DNA of 64,000 nucleotides from a plasmid (NZ_CP119397.1); one strand, 5' to 3'; shown: positions 49,680-64,000, numbered from the stretch's first letter. A program made the numbers and translations. Notes: a model not told the origin generated them from the letters alone.

Positions 49680-51368
49680 ATGGGATACCGGCCCAATATT
49701 CTCGGGCGCGGCAAGGCGCTCTCCTGTGACAAAACCACCACCGGCGCACGGCTGCTCTCCTCGCTTCCGCTCACCCAGTACAACGTTTATGGCCACGCGG
49801 TTATCCGGCGCGGCGATGTCACCACCGACTGCCCTAAGTGCGGCCAGCGCGGCCGTGTGGTCGAGGGCGACACGCGCTTTACCATTCATGGCATCCCCGT
49901 CGCCGTTGACGGCGGGCAGGTAAGCTGCGGCTGCCCGCCCGGCACCAACCGCATCATCGCCCCGCTCGGGCAGTGGCTGGGGCGCGGCCCCTCGCCGCAA
50001 GAGGTGGCGCAGGAGAAGCACACCGCGATGCTGGCCGCCCAACAGGCGGAGCGGGAAGCCCAGGCGTTACAGCAGGCAGCAGCGCGCGAGCGCAACCGGG
50101 TGTTTGCCAAATCCTGTTTGCGCGGTGAGGGCTGTAACGATGCCGGGGACACCCCGGAGCCGCACACCCACTTTGCCGAGATGGGGATTTTCCAGGCGCT
50201 GCCGGAGGCGGACGTACCGCAGCACGCGCAGGCCGCAAAAAGAAAACCGCCCGCGCCGGAGGATATTCCAAAACCCAAAAAGCGCAGTGCGCTCTACCGC
50301 TGGCTGAACGGCAACCATGAGGAGAGGGACTATCAGGCGGCGGTTGCCGCCGCCAGCGCCGCCGCACGGGCACACACCGCCACCGCCGGGGCGGCGGTAC
50401 TTGAGCAGGTCGCGGGGCGCTTCACGCCCTACGGCACCTGGGCAGTACGCGCAGGCACGGTGGCCGCCGGGGGCTTTGGCGCGCCCGTCGCCGGGCTGCT
50501 GGTGGGGATGATGCCGGGGCGGCTCAATGACGGTGAGCAGGACTTTATCGACCGGATGCGCGCCGAACAGATGCGCACCGCCCCGAGCCGGGTGCGTTTC
50601 ACCTGGGAAAGCGATGCACAGGGCAACCCGGTGCCGCGCGGCTGGCACACGCCGCCGGGCCGGGACAGCGTGCGGGTGCGCAGCATGGACTGGGACAGCC
50701 AGCGGCAGGCGTATACCTTCACCACCGAGGAAGAACAGCCCGTCACGATTATCTGGACGCCGGACCGTTCCGGGGTGCATGTTCCCACGAACACCGGCAA
50801 CCCGAATCCTCCGAAGCTGCCAAACCCGGTGATGGTGAACCCGCTGCCCGACAGCACCGGTCTCCGGGCCACCACCAGCCCGTCCCCGGACGAGAAAAGT
50901 TTCGCGGATTACATCCTGATTCTGCCGGTGGCGGACATTCCGCCAATTTATATTTATCTGAGCAAGCCGCCGGTGGAATTTCTGGAGGTAAAACCGTACC
51001 GTGATTTTAACGGACGCTCCAGGCAGGGGCATTATCATGTGGATCACATGCCATCACGTCAGGCCGTAATTTTGTACTTACGGCGTAAGCATCCTGATTT
51101 ACGTGACAAGCAAATCAAAGAGATGGCCGATCAAGTGGCGGCAATTGCCATCCCTGAAAAAGTACACCGTCAGGAAAGCGCAACCTATGGTGGAAGAAAC
51201 CGCTCTCAAATGGAATTTGACTCTTATAACCTTCGGGCCGCTATCAATAAGGATTTTGACCAAATCAAACCGATATTGCTGGAAGAATATGGTGCGACAG
51301 AGGCAGAACTGGACGCCTGCAGAGAAGAAATGCACAGAATTAATACTGAACTGGGAATATACAAATGA
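49680..51368 (+). CDS. PAAR-domain polymorphic toxin (T6SS-type effector) with C-terminal predicted HNH/EndoVII-like nuclease domain
   Basis: N-terminal PAAR-like fold (RRGDVTTDCPKCG...IHGIPVAVDGGQVSCGCPPGTNRIIAP, compare the canonical GD..TCP...IGG.PAAR.GD.C.C). Gln/Ala-rich linker. The C-terminal about 170 aa drop to low GC and contain GHYHVDHMPS. The stop overlaps the first immunity-gene start (ATGA). Confidence 0.65.
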   Translation: MGYRPNILGRGKALSCDKTTTGARLLSSLPLTQYNVYGHAVIRRGDVTTDCPKCGQRGRVVEGDTRFTIHGIPVAVDGGQVSCGCPPGTNRIIAPLGQWLGRGPSPQEVAQEKHTAMLAAQQAEREAQALQQAAARERNRVFAKSCLRGEGCNDAGDTPEPHTHFAEMGIFQALPEADVPQHAQAAKRKPPAPEDIPKPKKRSALYRWLNGNHEERDYQAAVAAASAAARAHTATAGAAVLEQVAGRFTPYGTWAVRAGTVAAGGFGAPVAGLLVGMMPGRLNDGEQDFIDRMRAEQMRTAPSRVRFTWESDAQGNPVPRGWHTPPGRDSVRVRSMDWDSQRQAYTFTTEEEQPVTIIWTPDRSGVHVPTNTGNPNPPKLPNPVMVNPLPDSTGLRATTSPSPDEKSFADYILILPVADIPPIYIYLSKPPVEFLEVKPYRDFNGRSRQGHYHVDHMPSRQAVILYLRRKHPDLRDKQIKEMADQVAAIAIPEKVHRQESATYGGRNRSQMEFDSYNLRAAINKDFDQIKPILLEEYGATEAELDACREEMHRINTELGIYK

Positions 51369-51832
51369 CAATGGATATTAAATCGCTGATATGCAGTTTA
51401 GAAGAACCCTATCAAGCTATTTGCGATGCGGGAATTATTACTTACCGAACGCCGCCGCAAGGCACACAGTGTGATCCTTATCTGACACTGGACATGAAAA
51501 ATGAAGGTGTTTTCTTGACCTTCACTAATGATGATAAAAAAGCACTTAGCGAGATCTCTTTAGAGCTTAAAACTGGCAGGAGAAAGGGGGTATATCCCAA
51601 TGAGCTTCTCGCCCCTTTAAAGCAGGATATGTCCCGTAGCTGGGTACATAAGGTCTTTGGATCACCGGATAAAAGCAACCCGCCAAAGATAGTTTTAAAA
51701 ACAGAAATTGGCTGGGTTGAGCGCTTTATGGTAGAGGGTTTTCATATTCCTATAGCGATGGTCTTTTACTATGACATGGAGGAAATGGCTGAGGCTGTCA
51801 CTTTCCTTCCGACCTCGAGATTGAGGTGGTAA
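51365..51832 (+). CDS. Immunity-protein candidate (paralogue 1, cognate to the toxin)
   Basis: Translationally coupled to the toxin. Paralogous to 51912..52379 and 53198..53665 (shared ...IGWVERFMVEGFHIPIAMVFYYDM..FLPTSRLRW terminus). Confidence 0.6.
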   Translation: MTMDIKSLICSLEEPYQAICDAGIITYRTPPQGTQCDPYLTLDMKNEGVFLTFTNDDKKALSEISLELKTGRRKGVYPNELLAPLKQDMSRSWVHKVFGSPDKSNPPKIVLKTEIGWVERFMVEGFHIPIAMVFYYDMEEMAEAVTFLPTSRLRW

Positions 51833-51911
51833 ATCCCGTCTGCCTGTATAGATTTCTGTGCAGGCAGAGTAATGGCAGGCAAGCCCTGCCGATATGAATA
51901 GGGCTGTACAA

Positions 51912-52379
51912 ATGACAGTAAACGTAGACGCCTTAATAAATAGCCTGGGGAAATCTTATAACGATATGCTTGAGGCTGAACTTATTCCCTATAAAACCCC
52001 CCCTACCGGATTTTCAGGTGATCCTGAGATCAGTCTGGATATGGCTAAAGAGGGGGTTTATCTGTCATTTAAGCGGGATGGGCGGATTTTACAGACTGTG
52101 ATCCTGAGCATTCAACATGACAAAGTAAGTAATTGGGTTTTCCCAAATGACCTGCCTTCCCCCCTACAAAAGATTATGTCAAGGCCATGGGTTCATGAAC
52201 ACATTGGTAAACCATTAAGAAGCGTACCTCCGAAAGTTATTATGAGACGAGCTTTTGGCTGGATGGATTTATACGAAGCTAAAGGTTGGGCAATCCCGAT
52301 CAGTATGCAAATCAGCTATGACGTGATGGATAATGTCAGAGCCGTCGCCTTTATGCCCACCGCCGAATTACGCTGGTAG
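51912..52379 (+). CDS. Immunity-protein paralogue 2 (orphan)
   Basis: Start MTVNVDALINSLGKSY matches paralogue 3. C-terminus ...FMPTAELRW. Confidence 0.6.
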   Translation: MTVNVDALINSLGKSYNDMLEAELIPYKTPPTGFSGDPEISLDMAKEGVYLSFKRDGRILQTVILSIQHDKVSNWVFPNDLPSPLQKIMSRPWVHEHIGKPLRSVPPKVIMRRAFGWMDLYEAKGWAIPISMQISYDVMDNVRAVAFMPTAELRW

Positions 52380-52551
52380 CCTTATCACTTTTACCACCCC
52401 GCCCGCGCATGCCACTGCGCGGGCAGTGATGTGATTCAGTATCGTGTCGGTGAATTGTAATTAACACTTGAGCAACTTGATAAAAATGATGATATATTTT
52501 CACCACAATAAAACTCTATTAACTTAACTATAACGCGCTCAAAATATTTTT

Positions 52552-52731
52552 ATGGGAAAATTACACCTACGCCCTTGCTGTGGCGATAAAGAAATATATG
52601 AACCTGGATCATGTGAAATATGTGAGCGTTGTGGCTGGGAGGATGATCCAGCGCAGAGTAAGCATCCCGATACTTTACGGGGAGCGAACCATATGACGCT
52701 TAATGAAGCCAGGCAAGCCCTGCCGATATGA
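52552..52731 (+). CDS. CPCC-family cysteine-rich small protein (59 aa)
   Basis: Translation MGKLHLRPCCGDKEIYEPGSCEICERCGWEDDPAQSKHPDTLRGANHMTLNEARQALPI matches the CPCCG...CEIC..W.DD...GaN..sL.eAR pattern of the Cys_rich_CPCC domain. It is not in the supplied ORF track. It overlaps the listed antisense ORF 52539..52784, which is judged spurious. Confidence 0.65.
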   Translation: MGKLHLRPCCGDKEIYEPGSCEICERCGWEDDPAQSKHPDTLRGANHMTLNEARQALPI

Positions 52732-52886
52732 TAATCACCACATGGCAGCAAATATTCCGTTATTTTATATTTATTTACATACAAAGCCGCGGGAAACGAG
52801 TAGCCAGATGGAAAAATACCACGTGAAAATTTATGAATGGGATTCTCAACATGGTACTGTTGAAATATGAGAAAGGTTGAAAAGTA

Positions 52887-53138
52887 ATGATTTCTTATTC
52901 TATTGAGATATTTGATAAATGTAGTGAAGAGTTAATTAAAGAAATAAAAATACCTAATTATCAACTAGATCTAGTGATTGAGATCATGGGATTTGACACT
53001 ATAGAAAAAGAGTCCTTTATTAAGGGGGTGGGGGGTTTCAATGTTACAAAGGAACAGGCTGTCAAATTGGAATCCTTATTAATGGTAGAATTCCATTCAG
53101 AAAAATACATTATTCAGATTGCAGGTGGCGAGATATAA
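52887..53138 (+). CDS. Small hypothetical protein (83 aa) in the immunity island
   Basis: Low-GC ORF between the CPCC gene and immunity paralogue 3. Confidence 0.4.
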   Translation: MISYSIEIFDKCSEELIKEIKIPNYQLDLVIEIMGFDTIEKESFIKGVGGFNVTKEQAVKLESLLMVEFHSEKYIIQIAGGEI

Positions 53139-53197
53139 AAGCATTTATTTTCCCATTATTTTATGGATGGAATAAACAGTAAAATGGAATTTTATAA

Positions 53198-53665
53198 ATG
53201 ACCGTAAATGTTGATGCAATGATTAATAGCTTAGGAAAGAGTTACATTGAGCTTGTTGATTCAGGATTGATTGTGTACAAATCCCCGCCGAAAGGAGCGT
53301 CAGGCTCTCCTGTGCTTAGTCTGGAGATGGCATTAGAGGGAATTTTCTTATCCTTTAAACGTGATGGACGAATTTTAAAATCGATAACACTTCGGCTCCA
53401 ACATAATGAAAGTCATAATTGGGCTTTTCCTAATCAACTACCGCTTCCTTTACAAAATAATATGTCCCGCAGTTGGGTACATGAAAATATTGGGTCGCCA
53501 TTAAGAAGTGCGCCTCCCTACATTGTGATGAAACAGGCTTTTGGCTGGGCAGATCTGTATGAATCAAAAGGACGTCCTATACCCACCAATATGCAAATTA
53601 ACTATGACGTGATGGATAATGTAAGATCGGTCACCTTTATGCCCACGTCCGAACTTCGCTGGTAG
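53198..53665 (+). CDS. Immunity-protein paralogue 3 (orphan)
   Basis: 155 aa. Closely related to paralogue 2 throughout. Confidence 0.6.
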   Translation: MTVNVDAMINSLGKSYIELVDSGLIVYKSPPKGASGSPVLSLEMALEGIFLSFKRDGRILKSITLRLQHNESHNWAFPNQLPLPLQNNMSRSWVHENIGSPLRSAPPYIVMKQAFGWADLYESKGRPIPTNMQINYDVMDNVRSVTFMPTSELRW

Positions 53666-53682
53666 CGTCCCACACTTTACCC

Positions 53683-54739
53683 GGCTTTGTTGAATAAATC
53701 AGATTTCGGGTAAGTCTCCCCCGTAGCGGGTTGTGTTTTCAGGCAATACGCACGCTTTCAGGTATACCTGCTTTCGTCATTTTGTTCAGCGCTCGTACCA
53801 GGGCCATAGCCTCCGCAACCTGACCATCGTAGTCACGCAGCGTCAGTGAACCCCCGAACAGCTGTTTTACCCGGTACATCGCCGTTTCCGCTATCGAGCG
53901 ACGGTTGTAATCTGTTGTCCATTTCCACCGCGCATTACTCCCGGTCATTCGCTGATTAGCCACTGCACGGTTACGGTCTGCATATTCACCGGGCCAGTAA
54001 CCCGCACCTTTTCGGGGAGGGATAAGCGCGCTGATTTTCTTACGCCGCAGTTCATCGTGACATAGCCGGGTATCGTAAGCGCCATCGGCGGCGGCTGACC
54101 TGATTTTCCGGTGGGTTTGCCGGATTAACCCGGGGAAGGCCTCTGAGTCCGTAACGTTGTTCAGCGACAGGTCAGCGCAGATGATTTCATGTGTTTTACT
54201 GTCAACGGCGAGATGCAGCTTACGCCAGATACGGCGGCGTTCCTGGCCATGCTTTTTGACTTTCCACTCGCCTTCACCGAAGACCTTCAGCCCGGTGGAA
54301 TCAATTACCAGGTGTGCGATTTCACCCCGGGTGGGCGTTTTGAAACTGACATTAACCGACTTTGCCCGCCTGCTGACACAGCTGTAATCCGGGCAGCGTA
54401 GCGGAACGTTCATCAGAGAAAAAATGGAATCAATAAAGCCCTGCGCAGCCCGCAGGGTCAGCCTGAATACGCGTTTAATGACCAGCACAGTAGTGATGGC
54501 AAGGTCAGAATAGCGCTGAGGTCTGCCTCGTGAAGAAGGTGTTGCTGACTCATACCAGGCCTGAATAGCTTCATCATCCAGCCAGAAAGTTATGGAGCCA
54601 CGGTTGATGAGGGCTTTATTGTAGGTGGGCCAGTTGGTGATTTTGAACTTTTGCTTTGCCACGGAACGGTCTGCGTTGTCGGGAAGATACGTGATCTGAT
54701 CCTTCAACTCAGCAAAAGTTCGATTTATTCAACAAAGCC
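53683..54739 (-). mobile_element. IS903-group (IS5 family) insertion sequence, intact, with 9-bp target-site duplication
   Basis: 1057 bp. 18-bp terminal inverted repeats GGCTTTGTTGAATAAATC at 53683-53700 and 54722-54739. Direct repeat ACTTTACCC at 53674-53682 and 54740-54748. Confidence 0.9.
53739..54707 (-). CDS. IS903-type transposase (IS5 family, DDE)
   Basis: 322-aa ORF filling the IS. Size and composition are typical of IS903 transposases. Family assignment is from recall of the IS903 ends. Confidence 0.85.
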   Translation of the reverse strand: MKDQITYLPDNADRSVAKQKFKITNWPTYNKALINRGSITFWLDDEAIQAWYESATPSSRGRPQRYSDLAITTVLVIKRVFRLTLRAAQGFIDSIFSLMNVPLRCPDYSCVSRRAKSVNVSFKTPTRGEIAHLVIDSTGLKVFGEGEWKVKKHGQERRRIWRKLHLAVDSKTHEIICADLSLNNVTDSEAFPGLIRQTHRKIRSAAADGAYDTRLCHDELRRKKISALIPPRKGAGYWPGEYADRNRAVANQRMTGSNARWKWTTDYNRRSIAETAMYRVKQLFGGSLTLRDYDGQVAEAMALVRALNKMTKAGIPESVRIA

Positions 54740-54785: not shown

Positions 54786-55667
54786 TCACTTTATGCTTTC
54801 ACCTGATGAATCTCGGCAATATAGCCGCCGGGGGAATTCGACCATCGCGGCGGGCGCGGTGGTATCGGCAGAACGCCAGAGGATTTTCGCATGGCTGGCC
54901 AGCGCCTTGTCCAGGGTTTGCTGGAGATCGGTGACACCGTAACCGGTGCGCTCATGGCCGAACGGGTAAGGCAGGTGGCCGTCGGTCACGAAAATCTTGA
55001 CCTTGCCGAAGGTGGAGGAGAGGTCCACTTCACGCACGGTGCCGCTGGTTTCGCCGATCAGGGCGGCGCTGACCTGCTGGTCACGGTCAACTTTGCCTTG
55101 TGAAAACTGCTGGTAGCTGCGGATGAAATCCTTCACCCGGTAGCGTGACAGGTAGACGCGGTTCTCCGGCACGCTGCTCAGCGGCGCGTAATCCGGCGCT
55201 TTGGTGTGCCAGTAAAGCTGCATATTCACGCCGCCCGGCCACTGGATCACCGCATCGCGGCCAATCGGGTCCGGGAACGGCTCGACCAGCACATCCGCCC
55301 CTGCCGCTTTCGCCTGCGCCACGGCCGCATCCATATCCCGCACCAGAAAACCGTTGCGCTCATCGCCGAACGGGTAAGGTGTTGGGGTCTGGAAATCAAA
55401 CACCGAGAAGCTGCCGACCGGTGTCAGCACCAGTTGGGAGAGCGTCTCGCTGGGGGTAGGGGTGACGTCGGCGGTGATGCGTTGGGTAGCCTTGCCGCCA
55501 AAGGTGTGCAGCAGGCTGTTGACGAAATCATCCATTTTGCCTGGCTGCACGTAAACATGGGTGGTGTCATATTGGGCACCCACCGCCAGGCTCTGGGCGG
55601 CCCAGGCCGCCGGGCACGCGCTCAGGGAGAGCGCCAAAGCGAGCACGCCAAACCGGGTTTTATTCAT
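54786..55667 (-). CDS. Secreted protein with tandem VOC-like (glyoxalase fold) repeats
   Basis: Signal peptide MNKTRFGVLALALSLSACPAAWA. Two internal repeats (PYPFGDERNGFLVRDMD... and LPYPFGHERTGYGVTDL...). Confidence 0.5.
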   Translation of the reverse strand: MNKTRFGVLALALSLSACPAAWAAQSLAVGAQYDTTHVYVQPGKMDDFVNSLLHTFGGKATQRITADVTPTPSETLSQLVLTPVGSFSVFDFQTPTPYPFGDERNGFLVRDMDAAVAQAKAAGADVLVEPFPDPIGRDAVIQWPGGVNMQLYWHTKAPDYAPLSSVPENRVYLSRYRVKDFIRSYQQFSQGKVDRDQQVSAALIGETSGTVREVDLSSTFGKVKIFVTDGHLPYPFGHERTGYGVTDLQQTLDKALASHAKILWRSADTTAPAAMVEFPRRLYCRDSSGESIK

Positions 55668-55767
55668 GACCTTCTCCTGTGGGCAATAACATCCCCGGCC
55701 TTCACCGGCCGGTTGCAGAACACCAGAAAAAGCAGGTGGCACCGGGCGGCACCACCTTCAGGCCGGG

Positions 55768-56589
55768 TTAACGGGATTGCAGGAACGCCAGCAGGTCTTC
55801 GTTCAGCTGATCCTGATGGGTGGCTGCAAAGCCGTGCGGGCCGTTGTCGTAGACTTTCAGCTCCGCGCCGGGGATCAGGTCTGCCGAGAGTTTGCCGGTC
55901 GCCTCGAACGGCACGATCTGGTCATTGCTGCCGTGGATCACCAGCGTCGGCACACTGGCTTTTTTGATGTCGTCGCGGAAATCCGTCTCAGAGAAGGCGG
56001 TCACGCAGTCGATGGTGCCTTTCAGCGAGGCGAGCAGCGCGATGTTCAGGGTCTGGGTCAGCACGCCCTCAGAGACGTTCTGCCCGGCATTCAGGCCGTA
56101 GAACGGCGTGGCGAAATCGCTGATAAACTGCGCACGGTCTTTGAGCAGGCCCTCTTTGATGCCGTCAAACACGCTCTGATCCACGCCCTGTGGATGGTCA
56201 TCCGTCTTGCCGAAAATCGGTGTCACCGCGCCCAGCAGCACCAGCGCGGCCACGCGGTCGCTGCCGTAACGGCCGATATAGCGCGTCACGTCCCCGCCGC
56301 CCATCGAGAAGCCCACCAGCGTCACCTCGTTGAGATCGAGTCCGGTGATCAGGTCGTTGATGTCAGAGGCGAAGGTGTCGTAGTCATACCCTTCCCACGG
56401 CTGGTCGGAACGGCCAAACCCGCGACGGTCAAAGGCGATGGCGCGGTAGCCGCGTTCCGCCAGGAAGTTCATCTGGCTGTCCCACATGTCCGCATCCAGC
56501 GGCCAGCCGTGGCTGAACAGTACCGGCTTGCCGGTGCCCCAGTCTTTGTAATAGATCTGCGTGCCGTCTTGGGTGGTGATGGTGCTCAT
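55768..56589 (-). CDS. Alpha/beta hydrolase (non-haem haloperoxidase/arylesterase-like)
   Basis: FSHGWPLDADMWDSQ...GFSMGGG nucleophile elbow. About 273 aa from MSTITTQDGTQIYYKDWG. Confidence 0.8.
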   Translation of the reverse strand: MSTITTQDGTQIYYKDWGTGKPVLFSHGWPLDADMWDSQMNFLAERGYRAIAFDRRGFGRSDQPWEGYDYDTFASDINDLITGLDLNEVTLVGFSMGGGDVTRYIGRYGSDRVAALVLLGAVTPIFGKTDDHPQGVDQSVFDGIKEGLLKDRAQFISDFATPFYGLNAGQNVSEGVLTQTLNIALLASLKGTIDCVTAFSETDFRDDIKKASVPTLVIHGSNDQIVPFEATGKLSADLIPGAELKVYDNGPHGFAATHQDQLNEDLLAFLQSR

Positions 56590-56917
56590 GGCGATCTCCT
56601 GAACGTAGTGGATGAAAGGGTCCGGATAAAACAGGGTAAATACACGCCGGAACAGGCGTTGCCTCAGCGGCACCCTATCCGGCGTGATCAACATACTCAG
56701 CCGCCCCCGCCGGGCGTGTTGGCGCCCCGGCAGGATGTGGCCGGATTATGGTCAGCGGGGCAACGCAGCGTCTAGTTATACGTAGGGATAGGTATACCTA
56801 AAGATAATAGTGCCGCCGCTGCGCCCGCCCTACCATGCACCCTGAGAGTTATGACTGCGGCCGCGCCCTTTTGCCGGCTGCCTTTTCCTTGTTACACCAA
56901 CCTCAATGGGTACCGCT

Positions 56918-57604
56918 ATGACCAACACGAAACTTGAAGTCCTGACGCCGGACAATTGCCAGATGATCTTCATCGACCAGCAGCCGCAAATGGCCTTTGG
57001 GGTACAGTCCATCGACCGCCAGGTGCTGAAAAACAACACCGTTGCGCTGGCAAAAGCGGCGAAAGTCTTCAATATCCCGACCATCATCACCACGGTGGAA
57101 ACCGAGAGCTTCTCCGGCCATACCTACCCTGAACTGCTGGACGTGTTCCCGACCCACGACATCCTGGAGCGCACCTCCATGAACTCCTGGGATGACCAGA
57201 AAGTGCGTGATGCGCTGGCCGCGACCGGCAAGAAAAAAGTGGTGGTCTCCGGCCTGTGGACGGAAGTGTGCAACAACAGCTTCGCCCTGTGCGCGATGCT
57301 GGAAGGCGGCTATGAGATCTACATGGTGGCGGACGCCTCCGGCGGCACCACCAAAGAGGCGCATGATTTCGCCATGCAGCGCATGATCCAGGCGGGCGTG
57401 ATCCCGGTGACCTGGCAGCAGGTGATGCTGGAGTGGCAGCGTGACTGGGCGCACAAAGAGACTTACACCGCGGTGATGGACATCGTCCGGGAGCATTCCG
57501 GTGCCTACGGCATGGGCGTGGATTACGCCTACACCATGGTGCACAAAGCCGAAGCCCGCCTGCCGGGCGACCACCGCACGCTGTCGCCGGTACCGGCCCG
57601 CTAA
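56918..57604 (+). CDS. Isochorismatase-family cysteine hydrolase (YcaC-like)
   Basis: Isochorismatase-like pattern (VVSGLWTEVCNNSFALCAM with catalytic Cys). Confidence 0.7.
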   Translation: MTNTKLEVLTPDNCQMIFIDQQPQMAFGVQSIDRQVLKNNTVALAKAAKVFNIPTIITTVETESFSGHTYPELLDVFPTHDILERTSMNSWDDQKVRDALAATGKKKVVVSGLWTEVCNNSFALCAMLEGGYEIYMVADASGGTTKEAHDFAMQRMIQAGVIPVTWQQVMLEWQRDWAHKETYTAVMDIVREHSGAYGMGVDYAYTMVHKAEARLPGDHRTLSPVPAR

Positions 57605-57661
57605 GCCGCCTGCGCCGGCCGGTCACCCGCCCGGCCGGCCCTTTCCCACGGGAGATGTTCC

Positions 57662-57928
57662 ATGAGCACCTGGTTGCTTTCTTTTGGGGCCGGTATCCTT
57701 ATCGGCTTGCTTTACGCGCTGCTGAAGGTGCGGTCACCGGCGCCCCCGGCGATAGCGCTGACCGGCCTGCTCGGCATGGTGTTGGGCGGTGTGCTGGCGA
57801 CCCAGGGCAGCGCCCTGCTCGCACAAAACAGTGCACAGGCCAGCCACCCTGTTGCACAGCGCGCCGTTTCCCAACACGCCCCGGCGGCCGCGCCTGCGGC
57901 GGTCTCCCTTTCGCACCCGGAGGCATGA
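57662..57928 (+). CDS. DUF1427/XapX-domain small membrane protein (copy 1)
   Basis: GILIGLLYALLKVRSPAPPAIALTGLLGMVLG is the XapX-domain consensus. Confidence 0.6.
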   Translation: MSTWLLSFGAGILIGLLYALLKVRSPAPPAIALTGLLGMVLGGVLATQGSALLAQNSAQASHPVAQRAVSQHAPAAAPAAVSLSHPEA

Positions 57929-58200
57929 TGCTGAAAGCTTATCTCGTTTCTCTGCTGACCGGCCTGTTGGCAGGGATGGTGTACGTCGCGATTGCCGTGC
58001 CGTCGCCCGCACCGCCGGTAGCGGCCTTGCTGGGGCTGTTCGGGATGCTGGTCGGGGAGCAGATTATTCCGGCGATCCGGCGGCTTATTAACCGCCAGCC
58101 ACTGACGATGGCCTGGTTCCGGCATGAGTGCGTGCCTAAAATCAGCGGCACCCCGCCGCCGGAAACGGGCACTGAACCGCCTGCTGCCCCGCCGCGTTAG
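57928..58200 (+). CDS. DUF1427/XapX-domain small membrane protein (copy 2)
   Basis: LLAGMVYVAIAVPSPAPPVAALLGLFGMLVGEQ. Tandem paralogue. Start overlaps the copy-1 stop. Confidence 0.55.
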   Translation: MLKAYLVSLLTGLLAGMVYVAIAVPSPAPPVAALLGLFGMLVGEQIIPAIRRLINRQPLTMAWFRHECVPKISGTPPPETGTEPPAAPPR

Positions 58201-58211
58201 AGGACACCGGG

Positions 58212-58589
58212 ATGATGCCGCCGTGCATTGCCGTTATCGATGATGAACCCTCCGTCCGCCGCGGGCTGAGCAATCTGCTCCAGTCGGAGGGGTATAGTGT
58301 GGCGGTGTTTGCGTCAGCGGAAGCCTTTCTGCACGACGCCGGCACAGCGGCCAGCATCCTGGCGATTATTGATGTCAAACTCACGGGGATGAGCGGGTTT
58401 GAGCTGTTTGACCATCTGGCGCGTTACCACGCCCCGCCGCCGGTGATTTTTATCTCCGGTCACGGTGATGAACAGATGGAGCGCGCGGCCCTGGACCTTG
58501 GGGCCGTTGCTTTTTTACGTAAACCTATCAATATTGATACACTTTTAGAACATATCCAGCGCGTGCTTGACCGGCCTGACCGGAAATAA
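58212..58589 (+). CDS. Single-domain response regulator (CheY-like receiver)
   Basis: IAVIDDEPSVRRGL...IIDVKLTGMSGFEL...FISGHGD...AFLRKP shows the phospho-acceptor Asp and receiver motifs. No output domain. Confidence 0.8.
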   Translation: MMPPCIAVIDDEPSVRRGLSNLLQSEGYSVAVFASAEAFLHDAGTAASILAIIDVKLTGMSGFELFDHLARYHAPPPVIFISGHGDEQMERAALDLGAVAFLRKPINIDTLLEHIQRVLDRPDRK

Positions 58590-58649
58590 GCCAAGCGGCG
58601 CGGTTGACGGTGTGCCGCCCTACCGGGCACGGTATGCCGGAGGAACCCG

Positions 58650-61600
58650 ATGAGCAACAACGCCCCCCAGTCCGCCTGGCCCGCCCCGGATGACCCGGCT
58701 GACGAACCGGCCTTTACGCTGGATGAGCGCGTGGTGTTTATGCCGCTGGCCCAGGATGGCTGCCTCACCTGGTCATGGTGCCGGCACCCGGTCTGCGGCC
58801 GCGAATACATTCTGGCCACCGCCGCCGGGGAAGAGGCGGAGCCGCAGGCGACGCTGCTGCTGAAAAATGAGTTCGCCCTGCGCGGCCACCTCGCGCCGGA
58901 CTGGGCGGTGATCCCGGTGGCCACGGCGCTGTATCACGGCCGCTACGCGCTGCTCTATCGCCCTTTCCCGTTTGAAACCCTGACGCGCATCACCGGCACC
59001 CCGGCCGGGGACATGGCAGTCTTCCTGGATCTGGCGCTGAACCTCTGCGCGCCCTTGTTGCAGATGCACCAGCACGGCCTTATCCACGGCGACATCAAAC
59101 CCGGCAACCTGTTTATCAATAATGACGGCAGTTGCCGCCTCGGCGGCTTCGGGCTGGCATCGGGCGCGACCGGCACCGGCGCACGCACCACCGTCTCGGC
59201 AGCGGGCGGGACGCTTGCCTATATGTCACCGGAACATGCCGCCCGTACCCGGCGCGCCGTGGACCACCGCAGCGATCTCTACAGCCTCGGCATCGTGCTG
59301 TATGAGCTGCTGACCGGCAGCCTGCCGTTTGACCTGACCGAGGGCGGGCAGGCGGAGTGGGTGCATCACCATATCGCCTCCGAGCCGCGCCCGCCGCATC
59401 AGGTACGCCCCGGCACGCCGGATATCCTCTCGTCGATTATTCTGCGGCTGCTGGCCAAATCCCCGGAAAACCGTTACCAGACCACCGAAGGGCTGATGGC
59501 CGATCTCCGCCGCTGCCGCGCCACCGTCTCCCCGTCCGGCAGCCTTATGCCCTTTCCGCTGGGTTTGCAGGATCGCGCGGCCGCCCTGCCGCTCTCTGAC
59601 GCGCTGTTCACCGGCCATCCGCAGAGCCAGGCGCTGCTTGAGGCCTTCAGCGGGGTAAACCACCGCGGCACGCAGGCGCTGGTGGTCATCAGCGGGCCGT
59701 CCGGAATCGGGAAATCGTCACTGATCGCCTCGGCGCTGAGTGCGCTGCAACACCAGCCGGTGCTGCTGGCGGTGAGCCGTGTGGATCAGTACCAACCGGC
59801 GCTGCCCTATGCGGTGCTGACGTCCGCCTTCCGGTCACTGGCGCTGCATATTCTCGGGCTGCCGGCGGCGGAGATTGCCCGCTGGAAAGCGCGGCTCAGC
59901 CAGACACTCGGCAGTTATGCCGGGCTGGCGGTGAACCTGGTGCCGGAGCTGGGCCTGTTGCTGGCGCAACCCTCGTGGATCCCGCCGGATACGCTGTCGA
60001 TTGATGCCCGTGCGCGTTTCAACCACATGGTGCTCTGCCTGATCAAAGCGTTCGCCACGCCCTGCTGCCCGCTGGTGCTGATGATTGATGACATCCACTG
60101 GGTGGATGCGGCCAGCCTGCAACTGCTGGAATATGTGGTGAGCAACAGCACCACACTGCCGCTGCTGATGGTGGTGGCGTACCGCGACGACACCCACACC
60201 CACGGCGGGCCGCCGCTGGCCGGGTTACGGGCTGCCGCGGCGAAGGTCACTGAGATCCGGCCGGAACCGATGACGGTAAAGGGCGTCACGCGCTGGCTGG
60301 CAGACGCCTTCCAGACACGGGTAGCGGGCATTGCCTCCCTGGCGGCGCTGGTGCACGAAAAAACCGGCGGCAACCCGCTGTTCGTGCAGCAATTTGTGAA
60401 ACGCATCGTGGATGACGGGCTGGTGACCCACCATACCCCGCATAAAAAATGGCATTACGATCTGCCGGCCATCCGCGCGCGCCATTACACCGAGAATGTC
60501 GCCGGGCTGGTGCTGCAACAACTGGCGCAGATGCCGCCCGACACGCGGAAATTGCTCGGCAGCCTGGCCTGCCTGGGCAATGCCGGGAATCTGGCGGTGC
60601 TCACCCGCGTGCTGGGAACCGGCATCACTGAAATGTGCCGGGTGCTGCACCCGGCCGTGGCGGCCCAGTTGATCACGTTGTCCGTCAATGAGTACGCATT
60701 TACCCATAACCGGGTGCAGGAAGCCGCGTTTGCGCTGCTGGACCCGGCGGAAAAGAGCCACCTGCATCTGGCCACGGCCAGCCTGCTGGCGGAGATGTCG
60801 CAACAGGCGACCGGCAACGACACGCTGTTCCGGGCGGTTCACCATGTGGCATCGGCGATTGAGGCGATTGAACCGCTGCCGCAGCGCCGGATGTTCCGCG
60901 AACTGAGCCTGCTGGCGGCCCAGCGGGCCAAACGCACCGGCGATTCGCTCTCGGCGCTGGGTTACCTGCGCACCGCCCGCGCGCTGGCCGACAAAAATGC
61001 GCCGGACGATCACCAGCTCACCTTCACGCTGGATCTGGAAGAGGCGGAGTGCGAGTTTCTGCTCGGCAACCTCGCCACCGCGGCAAGGCTTTGTGCGCAA
61101 CTGGCGGGCCGGCCCGGCGGGCTGGCGGAAAAAGCGGTGGCTGCCTGCCTGCTGGCGGAGATCCACATGCGGCAATCGCACCGGCAACAGGCGCTGGAGA
61201 CGGCCATCGCCTGGCTGTCGGTGTTCGGCATTTCGCTCAGCCGCTACCCGGACGTGCGCGAATGCGACGACGCCCATGAGGCAATCGTCGCACGGGTAGG
61301 CGACGATCCGGCAGCGGTGTTCAAGGCCCTGCCGCGCATGGATGACCGGGATACCGAAGCGGTCATGAACCTGCTCGCCAGCGCCGGGATTTTCGCCAGT
61401 TTCTGCTGCCCGCGCCTGCATTTCCTGATCCTCTGCCGGATGCTGCACCTGACGCTCGACCACGGCATGACCGGGGCCGGGGCGACGGCGCTGGCCTGGT
61501 TCGGCGTGTTGATCGGCCACCGCTACGAGACGTACCAGCGTGGTTTCCGCTATGGCCTGCTGGCGCGGGAGCTGGTCAGCCGCCACGGCTACCTTAATGC

Positions 61601-64000
61601 CGAAGCGCGCATCCTGCTGCCGCTCGACCAGCTCAGCGTCTGGACGCAGCCGCTCAGTTTCACCGTCGAATGCGCCAAAGCCTGCTTTACGGCGGGCGTT
61701 ACCCACGGCGATCTGACCTCTGCCTGTTTCGCCACCTGCCATCAGGTGATCAATTTCCTGACGCGCGGCGACCACCTTGACGCCGTGCTGACCAGCATCG
61801 ACCGGGGGCTGGCGTTTGTGCGCAAGGCGCATTTCCAGGATGTGGAAACCATTCTGCTGATCCAACGGCATCTGGTGGAGCACCTGCGCGACCCGAACGC
61901 CGCCTCCCCCGCCGGGGCCGGTTTCCTGCCCGACACCCTGCTGCCGGGCACGCGTGACCCGATGCCGACGCTGATGTTCTGGTACTGGCTCTACAAGGCG
62001 CTGGCGCACTTCGCGGCCGGGGAGTTCGCCCAGGCCGCCGATGACCTCAGCACCGCCGGCACCCTGAGCTGGTCAGCGCCGGGGCATATCCACCTGCTGG
62101 ATTACCACCTGTTCAGCATTCTTTCCCTGACCCAGCAGCTGACGCCGGAGAGCATCACCCCGGCACACCGCCGCTGGCTGCAACCGCACTACCGCAAACT
62201 CGCGCTGTGGGCGCAGCTGAACCCCGGCACCTTCGCCGACAAAGAGGCGCTGGTGTATGCCGAGATGGCGCGGCTTGATGCGCACTACAGCCTGGCGATG
62301 AAGCTGTATGAGAAGGCGATCCGCCTCTCCCGCGAGGCCGCCTTTGATCACATCAACGGGCTGGCGCACGAACTGGCCGGGCGTTTTGTACAGGCACGCA
62401 GCTACCCCACGGCGGCTGATGCCCACTTCCGGGGCGCGATGGCGGCCTGGGGACGTTGCGGTGCGCAGGCCAGGGTGCGGCAGCTTGAGCGGCAGTACCC
62501 GCATCTGGTGGTGCCGCGGCACACCTCGCCTTACGACACCATCGCCTTTGCCCAGAATGAGGAGATCCGTGACTTGCAAAGCGTGATTAACGCCTCGCGC
62601 GCACTCTCTGAAGAGATCAACCTCGGGCGGTTGATCCAGATTCTGATGACCATGCTGCTGGAGCGCGCCGGGGCGCAGCGCGGGCTGCTGATCCGCGTGG
62701 CCGGGAACCACCTGCCGGAGATTGAGGCCTGTGCTGACACCACCTCCGGCGGTGTGCAGGTACAGATTGTGAAAGCGGTGCCGGGGGCGACCGATCTGCC
62801 GCTGTCGGTGCTTTCTGCGGTGATCCGCACCGGGCAGGAGATCCGCACCGGCAAGCCGGGCGAGTTCAGCCCGTTCAGCCAGGACCCCTATCTGGTCACG
62901 TCCGGCGCGGCAGTGATGTGCGTGCCGATGTTCAAACAGGCCCGGCTGGTGGGCGTGCTCTATCTGGAGAACCGGCTGATGCCGGAGGTGTTTACCGCGG
63001 AGCATTCAAAAATCATCGGCATTCTGGCGGCGCAGGCGGCGGTGTCGCTGGAAACCGCCCGGCTCTATGCGGAGCTGCTGGAGGAGAACATCCAGCGCCG
63101 CCGGGTCGAGAAAGAGCTGCGTGCCAGCCAGACGTCACTGATGCTGGGCGAGCAGATCAGCCACACCGGCACCTGGCGCTGGGATGTGCAGCAGGATCTG
63201 ATGGTGATTTCCGACGAGTACGGGCGCATTTTAGGGCTGCCGCCGAGCCAGAAAAGCATTTCGATGGCGGATTTCCTGACACGGGTTCATGTGGATGACC
63301 ACCCCCGCATCAGCACACTGGTGACGGAAAGCGTGCGTGACCATGTCACGATGCGCGCCGAGTTCCGCATTATCCGCGAAGATGGCGCTACCCGTTACCT
63401 GCTGGGGATCGGCAACCCGGTGCAGGCCGGGGCGGAGGTCAATGAGTATTTCGGCACCATCACCGACATCACCGCCCACCGGCAGGCGGAAGACGCCGCA
63501 CGGGTGGCGCAGGCCGATCTGGCGCGGGTGGCGCGCGCCACCACTGTCGGCCAGCTGACGGCCTCCATCGCCCATGAGATCAACCAGCCGCTGATGTCGA
63601 TTGTCTCCAACGCCGGGGCGAGCCTGCGCTGGCTGGGCCGTGACCCGGCGCAACTGGGCAACGCCCGCGCCGGGCTGGAGGAGATCATCACTGAAGGGCA
63701 GCGGGCCGGGGAAATCATCCGCAGTTTGCAGGCGCTGACGCGTAACCAGCCGCCCTCTTTCGCGCGCGTTGATCTGCACCAGATCGCCCACCACATCATG
63801 ATGCTGTCGCGCAGCGAACTGGAGCGCCAGCGGGTGGCCGTGGAGTACCAGTTACAGGCCGAACAGCCCGGTATCTGGAGTGACAGTGTGCAGATCCAGC
63901 AGGTATTGCTGAATCTGGTGGCCAACGCCATCGACGCGATGGCCGACATCACCGACCGCCCGCGCCTGCTGACGCTCTCCTCCAGCAACCCGGCACCGGG
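58650..64000 (+). CDS. Giant multi-domain sensor: Ser/Thr protein kinase - AAA ATPase - TPR-like - GAF - PAS - histidine kinase (3' end outside window)
   Basis: Kinase catalytic loop HGDIKPGNLF and LAYMSPE. P-loop GPSGIGKSS. GAF segment (LGRLIQILMTMLLERAGAQRGLL...VPMFKQARLVGVLYLEN). PAS segment (TGTWRWDV...). HisKA box (LTASIAHEINQPL). GGAGG RBS before ATG 58650. Confidence 0.8.
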   Translation, partial: MSNNAPQSAWPAPDDPADEPAFTLDERVVFMPLAQDGCLTWSWCRHPVCGREYILATAAGEEAEPQATLLLKNEFALRGHLAPDWAVIPVATALYHGRYALLYRPFPFETLTRITGTPAGDMAVFLDLALNLCAPLLQMHQHGLIHGDIKPGNLFINNDGSCRLGGFGLASGATGTGARTTVSAAGGTLAYMSPEHAARTRRAVDHRSDLYSLGIVLYELLTGSLPFDLTEGGQAEWVHHHIASEPRPPHQVRPGTPDILSSIILRLLAKSPENRYQTTEGLMADLRRCRATVSPSGSLMPFPLGLQDRAAALPLSDALFTGHPQSQALLEAFSGVNHRGTQALVVISGPSGIGKSSLIASALSALQHQPVLLAVSRVDQYQPALPYAVLTSAFRSLALHILGLPAAEIARWKARLSQTLGSYAGLAVNLVPELGLLLAQPSWIPPDTLSIDARARFNHMVLCLIKAFATPCCPLVLMIDDIHWVDAASLQLLEYVVSNSTTLPLLMVVAYRDDTHTHGGPPLAGLRAAAAKVTEIRPEPMTVKGVTRWLADAFQTRVAGIASLAALVHEKTGGNPLFVQQFVKRIVDDGLVTHHTPHKKWHYDLPAIRARHYTENVAGLVLQQLAQMPPDTRKLLGSLACLGNAGNLAVLTRVLGTGITEMCRVLHPAVAAQLITLSVNEYAFTHNRVQEAAFALLDPAEKSHLHLATASLLAEMSQQATGNDTLFRAVHHVASAIEAIEPLPQRRMFRELSLLAAQRAKRTGDSLSALGYLRTARALADKNAPDDHQLTFTLDLEEAECEFLLGNLATAARLCAQLAGRPGGLAEKAVAACLLAEIHMRQSHRQQALETAIAWLSVFGISLSRYPDVRECDDAHEAIVARVGDDPAAVFKALPRMDDRDTEAVMNLLASAGIFASFCCPRLHFLILCRMLHLTLDHGMTGAGATALAWFGVLIGHRYETYQRGFRYGLLARELVSRHGYLNAEARILLPLDQLSVWTQPLSFTVECAKACFTAGVTHGDLTSACFATCHQVINFLTRGDHLDAVLTSIDRGLAFVRKAHFQDVETILLIQRHLVEHLRDPNAASPAGAGFLPDTLLPGTRDPMPTLMFWYWLYKALAHFAAGEFAQAADDLSTAGTLSWSAPGHIHLLDYHLFSILSLTQQLTPESITPAHRRWLQPHYRKLALWAQLNPGTFADKEALVYAEMARLDAHYSLAMKLYEKAIRLSREAAFDHINGLAHELAGRFVQARSYPTAADAHFRGAMAAWGRCGAQARVRQLERQYPHLVVPRHTSPYDTIAFAQNEEIRDLQSVINASRALSEEINLGRLIQILMTMLLERAGAQRGLLIRVAGNHLPEIEACADTTSGGVQVQIVKAVPGATDLPLSVLSAVIRTGQEIRTGKPGEFSPFSQDPYLVTSGAAVMCVPMFKQARLVGVLYLENRLMPEVFTAEHSKIIGILAAQAAVSLETARLYAELLEENIQRRRVEKELRASQTSLMLGEQISHTGTWRWDVQQDLMVISDEYGRILGLPPSQKSISMADFLTRVHVDDHPRISTLVTESVRDHVTMRAEFRIIREDGATRYLLGIGNPVQAGAEVNEYFGTITDITAHRQAEDAARVAQADLARVARATTVGQLTASIAHEINQPLMSIVSNAGASLRWLGRDPAQLGNARAGLEEIITEGQRAGEIIRSLQALTRNQPPSFARVDLHQIAHHIMMLSRSELERQRVAVEYQLQAEQPGIWSDSVQIQQVLLNLVANAIDAMADITDRPRLLTLSSSNPAP

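Follow-up and report, generated by a model that had tools for sequence, protein, structure and literature searches.

At the downstream end of a 64-kb stretch of plasmid NZ_CP119397.1 (hereafter the window, to which all coordinates refer), a gene for a stand-alone receiver is followed by an open reading frame (ORF) that encodes a very large sensor, and the question raised by this locus is what kind of signaling protein this sensor is. A previous, sequence-only reading had described it as a hybrid joining a eukaryotic-type protein kinase domain, an NTPase, a TPR-like helical region and GAF, PAS and HisKA domains, and had proposed that such sensors are uncommon in Enterobacterales and combine two phosphorylation chemistries in one polypeptide. 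For this window, our answer is chiefly a correction: the gene is an ordinary one for its order, and its product probably uses one phosphorylation chemistry, not two.

The sensor ORF begins 60 nucleotides (nt) after the receiver gene, at an ATG at position 58650 that has GGAGGA 6 nt upstream (residue numbers refer to the protein read from this ATG), and remains open up to position 64000, i.e. over 1783 amino acids (aa). A single-domain receiver does therefore precede a sensor of more than 1780 aa that continues past the window, and the two tandem DUF1427 (XapX) genes reported directly upstream are there as well (see table for these and all other features). The remainder of the gene, which the sequence-only reading had called for, was taken from a Chimaeribacter arupi contig (L001/L006): L001 is 99.51% identical to window positions 57473–64000 with zero gaps, and 5 of 1783 residues distinguish the window protein from the complete C. 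arupi sensor (P0001, 1858 aa; 99.7% identity). The latter has a HATPase_c domain at its C-terminus (1745–1854, 1.8e-20). On this evidence, the window DNA is from C. arupi or from a species very close to it (Yersiniaceae, Enterobacterales).

A Pfam scan bore out the proposed domain set, with the matches collinear along a single ORF without a stop: Pkinase at residues 130–281 (6e-22), AAA_16 at 325–508, GAF at 1325–1467, PAS_3 at 1519–1592 and HisKA at 1634–1700; the HGDIKPGNLF motif quoted for the kinase domain lies at residues 146–155. The term hybrid holds in the loose sense of a domain fusion but fails in the two-component sense, since P0001 has no fused receiver: it gives no Response_reg match, and HATPase_c ends at residue 1854 of 1858. 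Nor does the sensor contain a transmembrane-like segment, its highest 19-residue hydropathy (2.1) being that of the Walker B strand. The gene thus almost certainly encodes a real, intact, cytoplasmic sensor histidine kinase with the architecture described.

Whether two chemistries coexist in this protein turns on its N-terminal domain. The Pkinase match covers profile positions 105–257, that is, the C-lobe only, and HMMER likewise aligns only the C-lobe (residues 126–292) to PknB structures. The AlphaFold2 (AF2) model of residues 1–333 (predicted local distance difference test (pLDDT) 81.3, predicted template-modeling score (pTM) 0.81) displays the full bilobal topology, and its best solved match in Foldseek is the whole PknB domain (5u94, E = 1.2e-18, TM 0.83 on the target, 281 columns). 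As modeled, the N-terminal domain is a Hanks-type fold whose kinase scaffold is complete.

In the HMMER alignment, the HRD-x-K-xx-N motif of PknB corresponds to H146-G-D148-I-K150-P-G-N153 of the sensor, and D156-F-G to G166-F-G168, the Mg-binding Asp being replaced. The N-lobe columns were read from an alignment with 145 diverse, distant representatives (50%-identity level), in which the beta3 Lys column holds Ala56 (Y-I-L-A-T-A) and the alphaC Glu column Glu74 (L-L-K-N-E). A MAFFT alignment of the N-lobe with orthologs only, in which PknB K40 faced an Arg and E59 had no partner, was dropped because the register of the 145-representative alignment agrees with the AF2 secondary structure and with a control: the 17 relatives that have all five catalytic residues show VV[IL]K in the same columns. 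The predicted beta3 strand (52–58) holds neither Lys nor Arg. As a result, of the three catalytic positions that serve as a pseudokinase criterion (VAIK Lys, HRD Asp and DFG Asp; Table 1 of PMC12599244), only the HxD Asp148 is kept in the sensor.

The DFG Asp occurs in none of the 115 full-length Enterobacterales orthologs (Gly in 103, Ser in 11, Asn in one) and is missing in 125 of the 145 distant representatives (GFG in 110), among which the complete K-E-D-N-D set is restricted to 17. With Ala56 in the position of the beta3 Lys and Gly166 in that of the DFG Asp, the domain is predicted, with good confidence, to be a pseudokinase; the proposal of two phosphorylation chemistries is not supported, and the sensor most likely signals through histidine phosphorylation only. 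Note that the missing Gly-rich loop was rejected as evidence for a pseudokinase: relatives with the full K-E-D-N-D set also lack GxGxxG, a loop whose absence, by sequence comparison, characterizes the family throughout, its canonical members among them, and is uninformative on activity.

An alternative is that the sensor is a true dual kinase, whose Hanks-type domain would be active in a non-canonical way (metal-independent, or relying on basic residues elsewhere, for instance Lys72 or Arg78, which are nearly invariant) and would phosphorylate Ser/Thr residues of itself, the receivers or other proteins besides feeding the His–Asp pathway. The kinase-like fold is indeed complete, the HxD Asp and Lys150 are kept in 112 and 113 of the 115 orthologs, respectively, Glu74 and the activation segment G-T-x-x-Y-M-S-P-E are nearly invariant, and the 17 distant relatives with an intact set make an active ancestor probable; moreover, pseudokinases of the DLHK family, which also have GFG, may bind ATP through arginines (PMC12599244). 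However, an activity of this kind would have to arise with Ala in place of the beta3 Lys, on a strand devoid of basic residues, and with no DFG Asp in any ortholog, and 37 of the 115 orthologs have His, Ser, Ala or Thr at the position of the catalytic-loop Asn, which suggests a relaxed constraint on metal binding. We consider a dual kinase unlikely and retain the pseudokinase assignment.

The AAA_16 region that follows carries conserved Walker A (GPSGIGKS, 349–356, with K355) and Walker B (LVLMIDD, 475–481, with D480 and D481) motifs, GxxxxGK[ST] being kept in 119 of 120 homologs. In the AF2 model of residues 296–1300 (pLDDT 84.3, pTM 0.75), a P-loop alpha/beta core is followed by a helical domain, by hairpins that resemble a winged helix and by some 600 residues folded into helical hairpins, which supports the TPR-like region of the sequence-only reading. 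Foldseek matches the model to the STAND-TPR protein PH0952 (6mfv, 5.3e-11 over 766 columns), to MalT (8bob, 7.2e-7) and to Apaf-1 (3shf, 2.3e-6). With this core–helical–winged helix–TPR layout, the middle 1000 residues or so are, according to the model, a MalT-type STAND NTPase. In STAND switches, the ADP-bound form is autoinhibited by the arm and the sensor, and the inducer brings about opening and multimerization; the MalT family has been noted to include serine-threonine kinases (PMC6468293, the paper reporting 6mfv).

The GAF domain is the most conserved stretch among the orthologs, with long runs of columns conserved at 90% or more, and among 149 distant representatives a GAF domain was found in 138, a histidine kinase in 116 and a PAS domain in 45. 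The H-box, of the HEINQP type, is identical in 117 of 120 homologs, with His1642 as the predicted phospho-acceptor. The window ends within HATPase_c; in P0001, the G1 (DTGIGL, 1792), F (FDSFYTTK, 1806) and G2 (GMGMGL, 1816) boxes complete an intact H, N, G1, F and G2 set. The solved chains closest to the transmitter are FixL-derived kinases (8a3u, 3.4e-21), and the output is, on sequence criteria, a FixL-type HisKA–HATPase_c transmitter.

Two response regulators accompany this transmitter. The stand-alone receiver keeps D10, D11, D54, S82 and K104, and among NCBIfam models it matches the receiver half of FixJ best (2.2e-27); a look-up of the exact protein sequence gave no match because the strain differs slightly. 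In C. arupi, a 206-aa REC-GerE regulator (FixJ model, 8.2e-53) is encoded convergently just beyond the position of the window end, and the two receivers are 35% identical. An ORF of 138 aa with no family match (L001 6910–7326, minus strand) lies between the kinase and FixJ-like regulator genes; it occurs only in Chimaeribacter, Franconibacter and Siccibacter loci (59–100% identity).

We then come to the claimed rarity of such sensors. A homolog search returned full-length relatives (53–90% identity) in many Enterobacterales genera, some homolog clusters containing hundreds to thousands of sequences (up to 3228 members). A scan of species-representative Enterobacterales genomes yielded 61 loci (50–90% identity) in 14 named genera, including Chimaeribacter, Leclercia, Enterobacter, Kosakonia, Silvania, Pantoea, Erwinia, Franconibacter, Siccibacter, Mangrovibacter, Kalamiella and Pseudenterobacter, to which the homolog search adds Serratia, Cronobacter, Klebsiella, Mixta, Sodalis and Yokenella. 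The qualification "uncommon in Enterobacterales" does not survive these counts: the gene is ordinary for the order, although absent from its best-known species (no DNA-level match to the sensor gene in 5,426 complete Escherichia coli genomes). Several homologs and the near-identical C. arupi protein bear the NCBI name [quoted passage not shown]. The wider family comprises at most 11,620 clusters (50% identity, E <= 1e-30), a number that may be inflated by proteins with only the kinase or only AAA_16, as these could score equally well; the best 150 of these 11,620 representatives all align over residues ~50–1200 of the N-terminal part. The sensor is a further member of a named, widespread and very large family, not a rarity. 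Two of the loci are second, diverged kinase copies (53–55% identity): L063, from Candidatus Pantoea formicae, the genome of which also has a first copy (L041), and L066, from Leclercia adecarboxylata NCTC13032, another strain of this species having a 65% copy (L009).

To describe the surroundings of the gene, the neighboring proteins were used as tblastn queries against the 61 loci, which revealed one layout common to most of them (see table). The operon opens with the gene of a YcaC-like hydrolase and continues with the DUF1427 pair, the receiver (REC) gene and the kinase gene, the last two of which overlap in Pantoea; the FixJ-like regulator gene is convergent. The enzymes of the cluster are better conserved between genera (amidohydrolase ~90%, YcaC-like hydrolase ~88%) than the kinase (~63%) and the receivers (~60–65%). 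The amidohydrolase, DoxX and MFS_3 genes were not found in the window, where the alpha/beta-hydrolase gene, which adjoins the operator region described below, is the sole survivor of the divergent block (amidohydrolase, DoxX, MFS and alpha/beta-hydrolase). Almost all other species carry the amidohydrolase, DoxX and MFS_3 genes between the alpha/beta-hydrolase gene and the operon; on sequence comparison, the window strain has undergone a lineage-specific deletion of about 5 kb there. Chimaeribacter californicus (L030) retains the amidohydrolase, DoxX and MFS genes, and the loss probably extends to C. arupi generally.

This context bears on the possibility that the locus is an anti-phage or conflict system, in which a STAND (Avs/NLR-like) sensor would be coupled to a kinase effector, as in the defense kinases of PADLOC. 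STAND NTPases are frequent in defense (PMC13581612), the PADLOC models PD-T4-6, mad6 and MkoA match the sensor, and a PAAR toxin island and an insertion sequence (IS) lie 3–9 kb upstream. The 25 PADLOC matches listed, however, cover residues ~110–365 only, chiefly the kinase C-lobe (126–298), and leave the STAND part unmatched; we rejected the anti-phage reading on this account, as the matches reflect generic Ser/Thr-kinase similarity only. In addition, a fixed syntenic place within a metabolic cluster in 61 species and a two-component output are unlike mobile, patchy defense islands, and the composition of the region resembles that of its flanks (G+C 0.63–0.69). A defense function is very improbable.

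The intergenic region upstream of the operon provides a candidate target for the FixJ-like regulator. An alignment of 53 distinct divergent intergenic regions contains a conserved divergent-promoter block (56743–56811 in the window) made of a palindrome array between two -10-like hexamers. The array has a period of 16 bp, its unit being the 12-bp palindrome G[G/T]ATA-NN-TATAC, and comprises ~1–5 copies according to the species, ~2 here: a half unit, AGTTATAC (56774–56781), and a full palindrome, GGATAGGTATAC (56786–56797). On the divergent side, ATTAT is kept in at least 90% of the 53 regions, and a promoter scan independent of the alignment proposed a -35 TAGACG, an 18-nt spacer and a -10 CATAAT ending at 56745; about 20 unconserved nt separate GGATTATGG from the array. 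On the operon side, (A/T)GATAAT after the array is conserved in all genera. The palindrome is strongly enriched: G[GT]ATANNTATAC occurs 131 times in 1.49 Mb (60 loci), against ~2 occurrences expected from composition, and 117 of the 131 sites lie at -2100 to -1600 from the kinase start, i.e. in a 500-nt window upstream of the operon. In the 64-kb window, the ATANNTATAC core is found in the operator array and in one other place only. Some Pantoea, Erwinia and Enterobacter loci have additional single palindromes on the downstream side of the FixJ-like gene (L034, L040–L042 and L064 at +6.3 to +7.7 kb; L013, L023, L054 and L059 at +11.6 to +12.4 kb); these may point to more genes in the regulon or to a control exerted on the regulator gene.

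Two reduced loci show which elements stay together. In L008, the hydrolase and DUF1427 genes are lost and the palindrome is directly upstream of the REC gene; in L063, which lacks both the enzymes and the stand-alone REC, the kinase start is preceded by palindromes at -180 and -164, and the gene of the FixJ-like regulator is still convergent. The minimal conserved unit is thus operator, kinase and FixJ-like regulator, which makes the latter the most economical DNA-binding candidate and suggests autoregulation. That the FixJ-like regulator acts on the palindromes, as their co-location suggests, is a view we hold by a narrow preference.

As the REC gene lies upstream of the kinase gene in 58 of the 61 loci and the FixJ-like regulator gene is convergent in 59, both response regulators are probably partners of the kinase. 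Alternatively, the stand-alone receiver could be the sole output, acting like CheY on a protein target (the DUF1427 proteins or the hydrolase), with the FixJ-like regulator and the palindromes belonging to another circuit. The close placement of the REC gene, its overlap with the kinase gene in Pantoea and the intact receiver residues are in keeping with this view; yet conservation is just as high for the FixJ-like regulator, L063 has retained the kinase, this regulator and the palindromes in the absence of a stand-alone receiver, and two receivers that are 35% identical and both match FixJ best are consistent with one kinase serving both. The sole-receiver alternative is accordingly quite improbable, and we keep the assignment of both partners.

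The analysis shows which domains and folds are present, the state of their motifs, the order of the genes and how well the motifs are conserved; from this, we favor, with moderate confidence, an overall reading in which a STAND-gated, pseudokinase-bearing FixL-type kinase signals to the FixJ-like regulator and the stand-alone receiver and controls the hydrolase/DUF1427 operon through the operator. The resting STAND module would be closed and nucleotide-bound. A cue from the cytoplasm could engage the TPR, GAF or PAS parts; alternatively, the pseudokinase could take it up, as a module for docking or for ligand binding. Judging by the neighboring genes and the fungal proteins of like architecture, our guess is that the cue is redox or xenobiotic stress. 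Binding would elicit nucleotide exchange and self-association, which would set the autophosphorylation of His1642. The phosphoryl group would then pass to the convergent FixJ-like regulator, of the REC–helix-turn-helix type, and to the stand-alone receiver, which may serve as a phosphate sink or modulator. The phosphorylated regulator would bind the GKATA-NN-TATAC palindromes (56774–56797) in the -35 region of the operon promoter and thereby control the hydrolase–DUF1427–DUF1427–REC–kinase operon (autoregulation) and the divergent hydrolase and transport genes. For the Enterobacterales clade as a whole, we tentatively put forward a more specific version, which may well prove wrong: a dead Hanks kinase would have been repurposed as a signal-receiving or oligomerization module, and the circuit formed with the FixJ-like regulator, self-contained and autoregulated, would read an array of 16-bp-spaced operators that varies in length, to turn on a conserved hydrolase/DoxX/exporter detoxification cluster.

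Several points weigh against this overall reading. CASK, likewise a GFG protein, is an active kinase, and a domain with a purely structural role would not usually conserve Asp148, Lys150, Asn153, Glu74 and the SPE motif. The structural evidence is from AF2 predictions rather than solved structures. Co-location is all that ties the regulator to the operator, and the palindromes could be bound by a different transcription factor; either of the two receivers may be the main phosphoacceptor. Three of the four divergent cluster genes are gone here, so that part of the putative regulon is missing. Finally, the literature that could be searched yielded no experimental work on a bacterial member of the family.

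Table. Features of the sensor locus: window positions, and placement relative to the kinase start in the layout common to most of the 61 loci
Feature	Window position	Strand	Common layout	Evidence and remarks
DUF6392 genes (three)	51365..51832, 51894..52379, 53198..53665			tandem, after the PAAR toxin gene
alpha/beta-hydrolase gene	55768..56589	-	~-6.6 kb	273 aa from ATG 56589; Pfam Abhydrolase_1 1.8e-34; divergent from the sensor operon; most of 61 loci, 78–95% identity
MFS_3 exporter gene		-	~-5.8 kb	common layout
DoxX gene		-	~-4.1 kb	common layout
Amidohydro_3 gene		-	~-3.7 kb	common layout
GGATTATGG	56743..56751	-		minus strand CATAAT, -10-like hexamer 56750..56745 for the divergent promoter
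Candidate operator array	56774..56797	.		half unit plus full 12-bp palindrome
GATAAT	56803..56808	+		-10-like hexamer of the putative operon promoter, directly after the last palindrome; no good -35
Isochorismatase-family (YcaC-like) cysteine hydrolase gene	56906..57604	+	~-1.65 kb	232 aa; operon gene 1; Pfam Isochorismatase 9.4e-28; 57/61 loci, 58–93% identity, ~88% in most
DUF1427/XapX small membrane protein 1 gene	57662..57928	+		88 aa; Pfam DUF1427 1.3e-18; TIGR03510 2.5e-16; common layout
DUF1427/XapX small membrane protein 2 gene	57925..58200	+	~-0.7 kb	90–91 aa; Pfam DUF1427 1.9e-29; TIGR03510 2.4e-16; common layout
Stand-alone receiver gene (REC only)	58212..58589	+	~-0.4 kb	125 aa; Pfam Response_reg 2.2e-26; 356–439 nt upstream of the kinase start, 58/61 loci
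Sensor histidine kinase gene	58650..64000	+	0	reference point of the layout; 1783 of 1858 codons inside the window, 3' part beyond its end
Hanks-type kinase fold, predicted pseudokinase	58734..59525	+		residues ~29–292; AF2 model, motif columns
P-loop NTPase core (AAA_16) of the STAND module	59622..60173	+		AAA_16 325–508, 1.4e-23
Helical domain, winged-helix-like domain and ~600 residues of TPR-like hairpins (STAND arm and sensor)	60174..62519	+		AF2 model
GAF domain	62622..63050	+		Pfam GAF 4.3e-9
PAS domain (PAS_3)	63204..63425	+		6.8e-6; 26.7 bits against a cut-off of 25.6
HisKA (DHp)	63549..63749	+		HisKA 3e-8; H-box SIAHEINQP; His1642 at 63573–63575
HATPase_c start	63882..64000	+		N-box 63906–63935; G1, F and G2 boxes past the window end
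FixJ-like regulator gene		-	~+5.6 kb	convergent, 59/61 loci

Within the operon, the start of the second DUF1427 gene overlaps the stop of the first, a pair also present in Serratia, Enterobacter, Pantoea and Chimaeribacter; the hydrolase matches the NCBIfam YcaC model (9.7e-39) under its equivalog cut-off. Terminator-like hairpins within the operon fall inside coding sequence. A 594-aa antisense ORF over the sensor gene (60225–62009, minus strand) is in all likelihood no gene but an effect of the 65% G+C content. Next to the alpha/beta-hydrolase gene, a 318-aa ORF (54786–55742, minus strand) has a signal-peptide-like N-terminus and no Pfam or NCBIfam match. Further upstream, a PAAR and S-type-pyocin-domain toxin gene (49680–51368) is followed by three tandem DUF6392 genes; the G+C content of this stretch (49680–53665) is 0.37–0.45, against ~0.65 around it, and the whole looks like a type VI secretion system-type effector with a series of immunity or orphan-immunity genes. 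Flanked by the toxin island on one side and the sensor cluster on the other, an IS-type DDE transposase gene (DDE_Tnp_1_5 and DDE_Tnp_1; 53739–54707, minus strand) may be linked to the disappearance of cluster genes from the window strain.

What is new here is the conserved cluster with its convergent FixJ-like regulator and, as a candidate operator, the GKATA-NN-TATAC array of 16-bp period. Thousands of bacterial and fungal sensors have the pseudokinase–NTPase–GAF–histidine kinase layout; we found in the literature no bacterial member with a known signal, partner or mechanism, and nothing functional on the NCBI product name, COG3899 or DUF1427. Work on the Enterobacterales clade can draw on hosts with easy genetics (Enterobacter, Serratia, Pantoea), on a conserved regulon of compact size and on a clear operator candidate, with L063, reduced to palindromes, kinase and FixJ-like regulator, as a natural "minimal system". 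The role of a bacterial pseudokinase, the gating of a histidine kinase by a STAND module and the purpose of DUF1427 proteins thereby become testable questions. If the repurposing of the pseudokinase were true, the system would be a bacterial counterpart of the fungal peroxide sensors Mak2/Mak3/Chk1 and the first tractable model of a STAND NTPase controlling a two-component transmitter.

How does the sensor compare with known systems? Fusions of a Ser/Thr kinase, a GAF domain and a histidine kinase were described in 2001 as "dual protein kinases" with Anabaena HstK, and by 2005 had been noted in Leptospira, Ralstonia, Rhodopseudomonas and Pseudomonas putida (PMC1262709, PMC2176072). The sensor shares with the HstK type (Anabaena Alr2258/HstK, Pkn40/Pkn41), as described there, the cytoplasmic Hanks–GAF(+/-PAS)–HisKA–HATPase_c order, and has all the elements of the "trifunctional" architecture (Hanks fold, AAA_16 followed by GAF, HisKA and HATPase_c). 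It differs from that type in lacking the beta3 Lys and the DFG Asp and in its context, a hydrolase/DUF1427 operon with a FixJ-like regulator; judged by these residues, the "dual kinase" function of the family is not supported for this sensor. It is also compatible with the description of the CP1 family in a 2025 review (PMC12599244), a family that is cytosolic, found in cyanobacteria and proteobacteria and made up of ~40% pseudokinases, the latter being always fused to COG3899 ATPases, often with GAF/PAS, with "almost nothing known" about the function of the family: the sensor is cytosolic and has AAA_16 (Pfam) with TPR, GAF and PAS regions. In the sister family DLHK, a Pseudomonas aeruginosa example with AVLT/HRD/GFG (PMC12599244) comes close to the ILAT/HGD/GFG of the sensor, but DLHK proteins are fused to helicase/DNA2 domains, which the sensor lacks.

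With the MalT-type STAND proteins (E. coli MalT; Pyrococcus horikoshii PH0952, 6mfv), the sensor has in common the P-loop core, the helical domain, the winged helix and the TPR arm/sensor, and by analogy an inducer-driven ADP/ATP switch with multimerization is likely to be shared too (PMC6468293, PMC4381067); its effectors are a pseudokinase and a histidine kinase instead of a DNA-binding domain, and the identity is 14–18%. The transmitter (HEINQP H-box) and both receivers match FixL/FixJ models best without being FixL/FixJ orthologs, FixL scoring 90 bits against a cut-off of 850 and the convergent regulator 178.9 against 255 for FixJ; furthermore, the sensor is four times larger than FixL and shows no evidence of a heme-binding PAS. 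By published architecture, there is also a eukaryotic likeness, that of the fungal group-X kinases (Candida albicans Chk1, Schizosaccharomyces pombe Mak2/Mak3), which have the same S_TKc-like, AAA_16, GAF and HisKA–HATPase order but, unlike the sensor, a fused receiver and a phosphorelay/mitogen-activated protein kinase output. In these fungi, the N-terminal domains of Chk1 are needed for function, and Mak2/3 take part in peroxide signaling (PMC9069115, PMC5383687, PMC3829895).

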